Shown here: positions 26,151 to 27,513 of the stretch, piece after piece
How positions within the stretch are numbered: position 1 is the stretch's first letter
Layout of the letters: each line of letters begins with the position of its first letter
IMG/VR virus record: IMGVR_UViG_3300031182_000053
Span: 1 to 51,699 of that record
Origin: a virus
Lineage: Duplodnaviria; Caudoviricetes
DNA length: 51,699 bases
Direction: 5' to 3' (one strand)
Position numbers and translations under genes: made by a program
Notes under the pieces: generated by a model
What the model was told of the DNA's origin: nothing
Databases searched by the model: none
Seen by the model: the letters and a program-made list of their open reading frames with translations, nothing else

Positions 26151-26405
26151 CTATCTCATTTCCTGAACCCATACCATGCCTTCAAAGCTATCGAAACCTC
26201 CAGCATCAAGAATACACTGTAATGCTGTGCGGCGTCCTACCGGCATATATGGTTTTCCATGATCACAGGCGAAACCGACATATCCTAGTGTCGGATGTTT
26301 TAGCGTGTAGTAACCATCCGGCTGTATATATCCTCCTGGGACTAGGAAGCGTTGCCCATTCAACCGTATAATCTCCAGCGCAGCGTTGATTTCTTGGATG
26401 GTCAT
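26151..26405 (-). CDS. Hypothetical protein
   Basis: RBS AAAGGA; 84 aa. Confidence 0.7.
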   Translation of the reverse strand: MTIQEINAALEIIRLNGQRFLVPGGYIQPDGYYTLKHPTLGYVGFACDHGKPYMPVGRRTALQCILDAGGFDSFEGMVWVQEMR

Positions 26406-26531
26406 GTTATCAAATCCTTTCGTTTTGGTTTATTTGGTCGTGGTCTTGGCCTCTGTCTCGCTCGCCGGTTTCCCGGGTCATGGCACCGTGGCTCGCACAT
26501 TTATTGGAGAAAGGGGCCGCAGCCCCTTAAA

Positions 26532-26678
26532 TTACAGTTTGAGGATGAGTTGACGGAGTTTATCGTGTTTGATGTTCTTTGCGATGCTCTCTTTGTAGGC
26601 TTGAATGTGCTGTTCATTCGCCCCGCGAGCTACGCGTTTTGCAATCACTCTTTTAATCGCCTCAATTTGATGGTTCAT
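26532..26678 (-). CDS. Small basic hypothetical protein (48 aa)
   Basis: RBS GGAGGT; MNHQIEAIKRVIAKRVARG... Confidence 0.7.
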   Translation of the reverse strand: MNHQIEAIKRVIAKRVARGANEQHIQAYKESIAKNIKHDKLRQLILKL

Positions 26679-26701
26679 TTTATTACCTCCGTTATTAAAA
26701 A

Positions 26702-26795
26702 TATCTACTTCCTGATAATAATTTATCACATGTTGATATAAAAAGTCAACAAAAATTATTAACTAGTTGATACTTTTTTGTTCTTAGTGTATAGT
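26702..26795. promoter_or_regulatory. Divergent promoters with three TATCAAC-N2-GTTGATA-like operators (copy 1)
   Basis: Sites at 26702-17, 26723-38 and 26757-72. Leftward TTGACT...TGaTAAATT; rightward TTGATA-N17-TATAGT. Confidence 0.75.
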
Positions 26796-26816
26796 TGTTG
26801 TCAGGAGGTGTATGGA

Positions 26817-27026
26817 ATGATCGTTAATCACCTTAGTGAGATCATGGGGCGCAAGCGCCTGAAAATAGCTGATGTAGTAGCTGGAACCGGATTGGCAATC
26901 AATACAGTCTCCGGATTGTATCATGATAAGGTCAAACGAGTGGACTTAGAGACGCTTGATAAACTGTGTGACTTTTTGGAGGTCGGGATCGGTGATATCC
27001 TGGAGCATGTAAAGGAGGGGGCCTGA
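26817..27026 (+). CDS. Cro/C1-type HTH regulator
   Basis: LSEIMGRKRLKIADV...VDLETLDKLCDFLEVGIGDIL; RBS AGGAGGTG. Confidence 0.9.
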   Translation: MIVNHLSEIMGRKRLKIADVVAGTGLAINTVSGLYHDKVKRVDLETLDKLCDFLEVGIGDILEHVKEGA

Positions 27027-27169
27027 TGCGTGAAATCGAGTATAAGGCCCACGGCAATTTACTGATCCCATTTGTATATGTCGATTTGGATAGCTTGATG
27101 GATAATTATGACTGGTTTATGATTGGGTTTAAGCAAGTGCGACGAAAGCAAAAGAAAAGAGGAGCCTAA
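27026..27169 (+). CDS. 47-aa hypothetical protein coupled to the HTH gene
   Basis: TGATG overlap; RBS AGGAGGGG. Confidence 0.5.
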   Translation: MREIEYKAHGNLLIPFVYVDLDSLMDNYDWFMIGFKQVRRKQKKRGA

Positions 27170-27185
27170 TTGCTCGGCTCCTCTT
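27157..27185. terminator. Hairpin between convergent genes
   Basis: AAGAGGAGCC...GGCTCCTCTT. Confidence 0.7.
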
Positions 27186-27191
27186 CCGCGC

Positions 27192-27404
27192 TTACTTGCT
27201 GTTGCGCTTGCCTTTCATCCGGAGGTACAGGTCGTATGCCCGTTCCTCGCCAAGCGTGAGGCGATACCGCTCAAGTATTCCCTCTTCACGCTTTTTGAAC
27301 TCCTCTTTCGTGATACGTCCCAGCCCCCACTGGTGACGCGCTACACGAAGGAGGTGTTCGCGTTTTTGGAGCTTTTCAAAAGCTTCCATAAGTTTCTTTT
27401 CCAT
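27192..27404 (-). CDS. Small charged hypothetical protein (70 aa)
   Basis: RBS AAGGAGGTGA. Confidence 0.75.
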   Translation of the reverse strand: MEKKLMEAFEKLQKREHLLRVARHQWGLGRITKEEFKKREEGILERYRLTLGEERAYDLYLRMKGKRNSK

Positions 27405-27435
27405 GTTGTTTCTCACCTCCTTAGGAAGTCTTTTC

Positions 27436-27513
27436 TATCAACTTCCTGATATAAATATAGCACATGTTAATATAAGAAGTCAACAAAAAATATCAATTAG
27501 TTGATATTTTTGT
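27436..27513 (-). promoter_or_regulatory. Duplicated promoter with three operators (copy 2)
   Basis: Sites at 27436-51, 27457-72 and 27491-506, same spacing as copy 1; TTGACT...TGcTATATT. Confidence 0.75.

Follow-up and report, generated by a model that had tools for sequence, protein, structure and literature searches.

Positions 26151-27513 of a 51,699-base window, which is one complete virus record (IMG/VR IMGVR_UViG_3300031182_000053) and by its gene content a temperate phage, contain a cassette in which a promoter and operator block occurs twice around the gene of a small helix-turn-helix (HTH) protein, with short leftward genes (the cargo) behind each copy. We read this cassette as probably an accessory module that is self-contained and gated by a repressor, in a temperate Paenibacillus phage, with swappable cargo that would most likely serve early establishment of the incoming genome. 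The reading draws on the architecture of the cassette, its conservation, the co-variation of recognition helix and operator, the swapping of cargo between related loci and the self-contained distribution of the operator sites.

Architecture of the duplicated promoter block

A direct repeat of 76 nt forms the core of the cassette. Block 1 (26702-26777) and block 2 (27436-27511) align without gaps and are identical at 65 of 76 positions (86%), compared with best matches to block 1 of 39-40/76, and never above 40/76, in 20 windows simulated with a Markov-1 model. Each block carries three sites of the type TATCA-N5/6-TGATA at offsets 0, +22 and +55, the identical spacing being a consequence of the gapless alignment, and the centres of O1 and O2 and of O2 and O3 are 21.5 and 33.5 bp apart, about two and about three helical turns. 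The sites lie at 26702-26717 (O1), 26724-26738 (O2) and 26757-26772 (O3) in block 1, and at 27436-27451 (O1'), 27458-27472 (O2') and 27491-27506 (O3') in block 2.

The outer sites follow a 16-bp pattern, TATCAACNNGTTGATA, which with up to three mismatches matches the window eight times against 1.88 expected (sd 1.27), a count reached by none of 100 shuffles; half of these matches are the outer sites of the two blocks, beginning at 26702, 26757, 27436 and 27491. The middle site is one base shorter, at 15 bp, and is perfect in block 1 (TATCACATGTTGATA, 26724-26738) and weaker in block 2 (TAGCACATGTTAATA, 27458-27472). A first-pass annotation made from the letters of this DNA had described a duplicated block with three variants of one palindrome at identical spacing; the duplication, the number of sites and their spacing all stand, and the description needs correcting for the shorter middle site.

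The sites are laid over predicted promoters. In block 1 a leftward cargo promoter and a rightward HTH promoter stand back to back: the promoter scan places P_L1 at 26749..26720 on the minus strand (-35 TTGACT at 26749..26744, an 18-nt spacer and a TG-extended -10 TAAATT at 26725..26720; 9/12 matches to consensus) and P_R, the rightward promoter of the HTH operon, at 26767-26795 on the plus strand (TTGATA-17-TATAGT, 10/12). The -10 region of P_R is kept upstream of the HTH gene in relatives. Block 2 has a leftward promoter only, P_L2 (27483..27454, minus strand; -35 TTGACT at 27483..27478, 18-nt spacer, -10 TATATT at 27459..27454 with TG extension; 10/12), the rightward -10 not being kept there. 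On both leftward promoters O2 spans spacer and -10, O3 lies just upstream of the -35 and O1 is expected to cover the predicted transcription start. The -35 of P_R (26767-26772) falls inside O3.

Three further claims of the first-pass annotation agree with this map: near-consensus promoters drive tiny genes (minus-strand open reading frames of 84, 48 and 70 amino acids, aa), an HTH gene (26817-27026) lies between the blocks with its own -35 within an operator, and the operators differ from the CI/Cro sites, since the repeats in the CI/Cro intergenic region have another motif, ATGTAAAC...ACAAC, at 31084 and 31186.

The leader of block 2 also contains a hairpin, GGAAGT/ACTTCC (27423-27447, minus strand), which overlaps O1', ends at the ribosome-binding site (RBS) and is weak by RNA folding (z -1.7). 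Its GGAAGT arm recurs in single-block relatives, and the hairpin was noted in five related loci (L004, L006, L007, L013 and L015). Its role may be to stabilise the transcript; alternatively, it may account for the strong conservation of the imperfect right half of O1.

HTH gene and operator co-variation

The HTH gene (26817-27026, plus strand) encodes a presumed repressor of 69 aa that matches the Cro/C1-type Pfam family HTH_26 (PF13443, 1.2e-20) with 73.9 bits against a curated cut-off of 22, over the entire profile (1-63/63) and residues 5-67 of 69. Its PHROG match, phrog_38620, is a transcriptional regulator, and the closest solved sequences to its domain are PDB 8q86 (E 5.3e-7) and 3b7h (E 5.6e-6).

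HTH relatives were drawn from viral contigs, named genomes and a family-wide genome sample, and include proteins 72-96% identical to that of the window. At E<=1e-20 the family is sporadic, occurring in 2 of 53 genomes in the genus of G001 and in 17 of 401 in the family sample, a distribution that fits a mobile element. We examined co-variation in 27 non-redundant Paenibacillaceae loci, counting as a site any TATCA-N6-TGATA with <=1 mismatch within 150 bp upstream of the HTH gene. Re-fetched or duplicate loci were dropped (L003, L010, which has no upstream DNA, L011, L016, L032-L035, L037, L038, L040-L043 and L057; L036 was kept), and the distant loci L018-L031 and L039 (<=58% identity) were excluded from the count.

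Sites followed the recognition helix. All 18 loci of class A, with helix LA[IT]NT[VI], had at least one site and 15 of the 18 had at least two, compared with none of the nine class-B loci, whose helix reads L[AT]RNTV. The remainder of the class-A loci contained 11 sites in 136,479 bp, some of them belonging to block 2. In class-B loci, inspection by eye showed related shifted half-sites, TTGAT[CT]A, or another palindrome.

The sites are also largely confined to the modules. Across five host genomes of 5.3-8.8 Mb the O1 16-mer (<=1 mismatch) matched seven times, six of them within modules; the seventh lies inside an ABC-transporter open reading frame with no surrounding block, about one chance match being estimated, and controls gave 0. 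The block is retained across HTH identities of 52-96%, the divergent arrangement of HTH and cargo genes is the same in all relatives examined, and the two-block layout recurs in L003, L009 and L017. Most relatives have the HTH block with one small peptide, without the 47-aa or 70-aa genes described below. An autoregulated repressor that gates swappable cargo is a well-supported prediction from these patterns, and the earlier proposal of a self-contained regulon under one HTH protein is strongly backed on the comparative side (18/18 versus 0/9 loci, with O1 confined to modules bar one chance match).

Immediately downstream, a 47-aa gene (27026-27169, plus strand) begins with an ATG that overlaps the HTH stop codon (TGATG). 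It is conserved in five aligned loci (the window, L003, L009, L012 and L017) at 64-94% identity, and its product has no Pfam, PHROG or PADLOC match. Considered as the co-transcribed partner in a type II toxin-antitoxin pair with an XRE-type antitoxin, it is assigned to no toxin family by these three collections, and most related loci lack the gene. The convergent 47-aa and 70-aa genes are separated by a bidirectional terminator hairpin (27158-27184; z -2.8 on the plus strand and -3.1, followed by a U-run, on the minus strand). Rfam ctRNA-like rows over this hairpin scored 27.4 bits against a gathering score of 50 and were rejected as noise.

Cargo exchange between related loci

A prophage of P. 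phocaensis is 94.3% identical to the window over 26679-29319 and unrelated to it over 24085-26678 (2.6 kb). The break in homology lies one base from the ATG of the first cargo gene, whose first base is 26678. A survey of the genes behind this promoter in relatives, a check suggested in the first-pass annotation, found that the leftward cargo differs between loci.

The commonest first cargo in class A is a peptide of about 40 aa with a hydrophobic helix, a polybasic tail and a K-G-T-K motif, found in L004, L006, L007, L013, L014 and L015 and as a variant in L053. The peptide looks membrane-active from its sequence, and in the ESM Atlas it retrieved clusters labelled 'hypothetical protein'. In the distant loci L055 and L056 the topology is reversed, the basic part preceding the hydrophobic helix. 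Other first cargos are Gp111-N proteins (PF07410; L005 and L008 by Pfam, L009 via shared PHROGs and by eye only), DUF7667 proteins (L050 by Pfam, L051 and L054 by eye) and unique small proteins (the window, L012, L017 and L044). Some distant loci carry large cargo, including one weak HEPN-like match below cut-off (E 0.0046).

Cargo and gate can also be combined differently. In L012 (3640-3760) a homologue of the 70-aa protein stands behind a perfect TTGACA-17-TATAAT promoter with different palindromes, ACGA-N3-TCGT, and this promoter faces a different, divergent small HTH gene (3753-3968), an arrangement that implies the same cargo under another gatekeeper.

Cargo proteins and the 84-aa domain family

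The first cargo gene of block 1 (26532-26678, minus strand; RBS GGAGG 8 nt upstream) encodes a basic helical protein of 48 aa. A word-indexed search with it returned only itself, and one homologue, 48% identical and in the same position class, is present in L017. A GC-rich hairpin with a weak U-tract follows the gene (26511-26528, minus strand); it was found by RNA folding, was not called by the terminator scan, and is possibly a leaky terminator or an attenuator.

Block 2 would drive a 70-aa gene (27192-27404, minus strand) for a three-helix protein restricted to Paenibacillaceae. At E<=1e-3 the search recovered 30 proteins, its own cluster included, the named ones from Paenibacillus or Cohnella and all 'hypothetical'. 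The AlphaFold2 (AF2) model has three helices (pLDDT 88.1), with no PDB match at E<=0.001 and generic helical hairpins only, and the sequence holds a weak SHOCT-like motif below cut-off (SHOCT_2, E 0.073).

The second cargo gene of block 1 (26151-26405, minus strand), assumed to be co-transcribed from P_L1, encodes an 84-aa alpha/beta domain with a motif of the form PY-P-GG..AL..IL.AGGF. It appeared orphan-like in a word-indexed search; a full HMMER search recovered 75 relatives at E<=1e-3 and 21 at E<=1e-10 (alignment A5). Of the three cargo genes that had been called orphans, the label consequently suits only the 48-aa gene, and even that has its one homologue. The 84-aa protein matches no Pfam family. 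Its family is modelled by AF2 with pLDDT 97.1, and comparison of the fold with PDB gave no meaningful match (Foldseek best E 1.7, TM <0.3; wide VIA-align search best Z 4.2, below the meaningful level). BFVD holds one uncharacterised viral relative (E 2.3e-4), and the best ESM Atlas score, 0.78, is a lead only.

The domain is fused to ArdcN and MPTase-PolyVal in P0069 (residues 316-404, hhalign 99.7%), to LPD29 and MutS_I in P0087 (residues 801-893, hhalign 98.9%) and to LPD29 in P0094; among ten fused matches scanned, three carry ArdC-N, MPTase, LPD or MutS-I domains and seven have no Pfam match. Four long repeat proteins with partial matches (P0054, P0058, P0060 and P0086; residues 16-48 or 36-69) were set aside as probable repeat look-alikes. 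In Paenibacillaceae the domain occurs in 6 of 401 genomes and lies directly beside a full ArdC gene in two of the five contexts read. A scan of viral contigs with a 9-row alignment (A6) located it at 64 IMG/VR loci, of which 41 have an open frame between 60 and 111 aa long, and a UvsX-like recombinase lies within 4 kb at 31 of the 64, many of which come from one metagenome and are non-independent.

The recurring partners of the domain all handle DNA: ArdC, MutS-I, UvsX-like recombinases and, in the window, a ligase. Polyvalent-protein domains are argued, in the parts of PMC5512222 consulted, to act early in invasion, also in solo form. With these partners the 84-aa domain makes a good candidate for a so far undescribed role in DNA entry or against restriction.

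The ligase is an ATP-dependent enzyme (25226-26086, minus strand; Pfam DNA_ligase_A_M, 7.4e-31) encoded in the same direction as the cargo, and it may be the last gene of the leftward unit; in L017, too, the block 1 cargo has a ligase downstream. A hairpin with 13-bp arms followed by a T-run (26094-26134) holds the ligase RBS, so that ligase expression may be attenuated or translationally controlled.

Phage context

The cassette occupies an accessory region with lysis genes on one side, among them an amidase (22918-23829), and the lysogeny module on the other. The latter includes a CI-like HTH_3 protein in which Pfam finds no peptidase domain (30234-31058, minus strand), a Cro-like HTH protein (31227-31505) and, 3' of the Cro-like gene, a Bro-N/ANT antirepressor (31535-32308); a large serine recombinase lies at 49933-51546. 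Judged by its relatives the host is Paenibacillus: genomes of that genus contain the nearest relatives of the HTH gene, and the 94.3% identical segment (26679-29319) belongs to a prophage of P. phocaensis.

To the left of the cassette, an FRG-domain protein (24456-25229, plus strand; Pfam 2.5e-18) matches the PADLOC candidate system PDC-S15 (1.2e-40) and is a possible prophage-borne defense gene. To the right, a surface lipoprotein of Ltp type (28547-29224, minus strand) has two Lipoprotein_Ltp repeats and a PHROG match to superinfection exclusion (4.8e-55). Between them and regularly 3' of the module (homologues in L003, L004, L009, L012 and L017) is a winged-helix-like gene of 96 aa (27623-27913, plus strand; phrog_3502, 8.5e-14; HTH_36 and DnaD_N below cut-off) with its own promoter, TTTACT-17-TATAAT.

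Next to the CI-like repressor gene is a 75-aa HTH_3 gene (29783-30010, minus strand). A GAAC-N4-GTTC motif upstream of it (30044-30055) resembles a Cheo/LexA box, and this motif may mark an SOS-linked route of induction. Elsewhere, a 641-aa protein with a C-5 cytosine DNA methylase domain (43886-45811, plus strand) possibly protects the phage against restriction.

The accessory regions of related prophages (L007 4315-5915, L003 1351-1683, L015 1380-1718 and L017 4109-4456) contain YolD-like genes (Pfam-checked in L003 only), in L007 also a Y-family-polymerase-like gene recognised by eye, and DNA ligase genes in L007, L013 and L017. By their apparent families these genes make up a recurring DNA-damage-tolerance theme.

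The INPHARED phage collection contained no match to the cassette, the Ltp gene alone being matched. Full-text literature held no match to the O1 16-mer or its reverse complement, and among publications on Paenibacillus anti-CRISPR prophage HTH proteins none concerned the module as far as titles and abstract openings tell, supplements lying outside the search.

Proposed mechanism and alternative explanations

We propose that on DNA entry, with no repressor in the cell, P_L1, P_L2 and P_R would all fire with host RNA polymerase alone. Block 1 would drive the 48-aa and 84-aa proteins and perhaps the DNA ligase, and block 2 the 70-aa protein. The HTH_26 protein, made from its own sigma-A promoter, would bind palindromes of the TATCA-N6-TGATA type, and its dimers would fill O1-O3, closing off the HTH promoter at its -35 and the cargo promoters at their -10 and start. 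Because O3 of block 1 contains that -35, the HTH protein would limit its own synthesis. The cargo would receive a pulse, its promoters shutting as repressor accumulates and the HTH promoter settling at a low level, and in the lysogen it would stay low. The cargo would most likely act in early establishment, by DNA protection or repair, counter-defense or host takeover. Binding, repression, timing and every cargo function in this scheme are predictions.

Several observations weigh against it. Good conservation is confined to O1 and O3; the left half-site of O2 is at the same time the -10 with its TG extension, so that the promoter alone may account for the conservation of O2. The co-variation counts come from phylogenetically non-independent loci, and the hairpins 3' of the 48-aa gene and 5' of the ligase make it uncertain how far the leftward transcript reaches. 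None of the cassette proteins has a PADLOC, PHROG or Pfam match labelled defense or anti-defense, and with defense-type neighbors (FRG/PDC-S15 and Ltp) the region could equally hold genes of benefit to the prophage. At the 64 viral loci of the 84-aa domain neither ArdC nor the HTH of the module adjoins it (0/64 for each), so that the 84-aa gene would be one of many cargos and its link to counter-defense indirect. The anti-defense or host-takeover role expected in the first-pass annotation is therefore only partly upheld: it depends on the 84-aa cargo, for which the fusions with ArdC-N/MPTase and LPD29/MutS-I and the ArdC neighbor in two of five contexts speak in favor and the 0/64 viral loci against.

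Those same neighbors make it conceivable, though in our judgment unlikely, that the module locks away cargo for the benefit of the prophage, that is, defense, superinfection-exclusion or toxic abortive-infection effectors kept silent in the prophage and released on a signal. The module does sit in the lysis-lysogeny accessory region beside the FRG and Ltp-type genes, the commonest cargo of its relatives is the ~40-aa peptide that looks membrane-active, and large cargo, with the one sub-threshold HEPN-like match, appears in some distant loci. However, PADLOC matched none of the seven proteins encoded between the ligase and Ltp genes (five from the cassette and the 96-aa and 156-aa proteins downstream), the HTH protein, being a bare 69-aa domain, has no domain for sensing an inducer, and the 84-aa family is tied to proteins of invading elements (ArdC and polyvalent proteins) rather than to host defense.

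The small size and hypervariability of the cargo would also suit a true anti-CRISPR locus, with the small genes as Acr proteins and the HTH as a new Aca family, to which we assign a low probability. The regulatory logic is that of Aca/AcrIIA1-NTD, and HTH_26 is the family listed for AcrIIA1 in the consulted part of PMC9410906. Cas1 was present in four of five module-carrying genomes checked and, in the family sample, in 10 of 17 carriers versus 139 of 384 non-carriers, but this enrichment is non-significant (Fisher p = 0.073) and confounded by phylogeny. The HTH gene is moreover divergent from the cargo rather than downstream in one operon, AcrIIA1 was not retrieved from PDB (E<=10), no cargo belongs to an anti-CRISPR PHROG or Pfam family, and the 84-aa family associates with DNA-handling proteins, not Cas proteins.

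Divergent promoters with common operators and a small repressor recall a second immunity or decision circuit of the P22 immI type, in which the small proteins would be antirepressors or modulators of the CI-like repressor, kept off by the HTH. The CI-like repressor, an HTH_3 protein with no Pfam peptidase domain, may need an antirepressor for induction, and the 70-aa gene always stands behind a tightly gated strong promoter, even under another gatekeeper. We nevertheless give this explanation little credence, since a canonical Bro-N/ANT antirepressor is already present 3' of the Cro-like gene, most relatives have a single small peptide and lack the 47-aa and 70-aa genes, and unrelated genes behind the same promoter in different phages are more readily understood as accessory genes than as parts of a core decision circuit. 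That the cassette is a non-functional relic, its duplication and palindromes being chance or decaying sequence, is scarcely credible and already contradicted by the simulations (65/76 versus at most 40/76), the palindrome enrichment, the co-variation, and the retention of the block over 52-96% HTH identity with the two-block layout in L003, L009 and L017.

Significance

To our knowledge, autorepressed strong promoters are the signature behind most known anti-CRISPR genes and several other anti-defense genes, and almost all characterised examples are from Proteobacteria or the Listeria AcrIIA1 system. The repressor-gated module adds a candidate HTH-operator pair with what appears to be a clear sequence rule linking recognition helix and half-site. 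Since the cargo is exchanged from one base off the start codon, at a sharply bounded hotspot, a cargo list should be easy to harvest computationally. Among the cargo, the 84-aa family combines a wide distribution and a confidently predicted fold, to which no solved structure offers a counterpart, with ties to ArdC or polyvalent proteins and recombinases. Should the cargo prove to be defense or toxic genes, interest would remain in the module as a compact, naturally occurring gate for toxic payloads.

A wider generalisation is tentative, and we hold it to be doubtful: that the HTH_26 block is a family-wide, plug-in platform for entry expression in Paenibacillaceae phages, whose cargo forms a reservoir of undescribed early-establishment or counter-defense proteins. 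If so, that reservoir would include the ArdC-associated 84-aa domain, the ~40-aa peptide, Gp111-N, DUF7667 and the helical proteins of 48 and 70 aa; the pair of HTH protein and operator would offer Firmicutes a guilt-by-association anchor, as Aca proteins did for anti-CRISPRs; and, through the doubled promoter, a single repressor would set the timing of two separate groups of cargo.

Comparison with known systems

In P22 immI (Mnt and Arc over ant), in restriction-modification (RM) controller proteins and in IncP kil-kor, genes are expressed as the DNA enters a cell that lacks the repressor, until a small repressor from a neighboring gene silences them. The module shares with these systems the predicted entry-fired and then repressed genes and the divergent promoters with shared operators. 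Mnt and Arc are ribbon-helix-helix proteins, whereas the repressor here is an HTH protein, and the phage's ANT-domain gene lies elsewhere (31535-32308). No homologue of an antirepressor, restriction or kil gene was found among the cassette proteins by Pfam, PHROG or PADLOC.

With the anti-restriction protein ArdC and the polyvalent proteins of conjugative elements and phages, as treated in the consulted part of PMC5512222, the module shares its 84-aa domain, which in settings of conjugative elements occurs inside ArdC-N/MPTase and LPD29/MutS-I proteins and, solo, beside ArdC. In the module the 84-aa protein stands alone and is predicted to be made after entry from a gated promoter, rather than delivered with the DNA.

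Both solved sequences nearest to the HTH domain derive from mobile elements in Firmicutes: PDB 8q86 is Stl2, the master repressor of the SaPI2 satellite (according to part of PMC11846896), and 3b7h is prophage Lp1 protein 11. Stl2 has 232 aa with a large C-terminal sensor part, in contrast to the bare 69-aa DNA-binding domain of the module protein.

The defining acr-aca layout has aca downstream of acr in one operon. The cassette had at first been described as acr-aca-like, and in this respect the description fails: the HTH gene (plus strand) diverges from the cargo (minus strand), with back-to-back promoters, instead of following it in an operon. No cargo protein falls in a PHROG or Pfam family annotated as anti-CRISPR, in a scan made without a dedicated Acr library, and the HTH profile did not retrieve AcrIIA1 from PDB at E<=10, in a comparison that did not contain Aca profiles. 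The palindrome is different, and the module has its promoter in two copies with three sites on each.

The regulatory logic is closer. In Aca and the N-terminal domain of AcrIIA1 (AcrIIA1-NTD), an operator inside a strong core promoter is combined with autorepression, and the AcrIIA1 palindrome sits between -35 and -10, according to the consulted portions of PMC9410906 and bioRxiv 10.1101/787200; Table 1 of PMC9410906 gives HTH_26 as the Pfam family of AcrIIA1. The module likewise pairs a small HTH protein with an inverted repeat inside a predicted strong core promoter and extra repeats up- or downstream, together with predicted autorepression and small, variable accessory genes on phages. Taken at the level of DNA and protein sequence, 'Aca-like' holds as a description of how the module would work, not as a statement of family membership.

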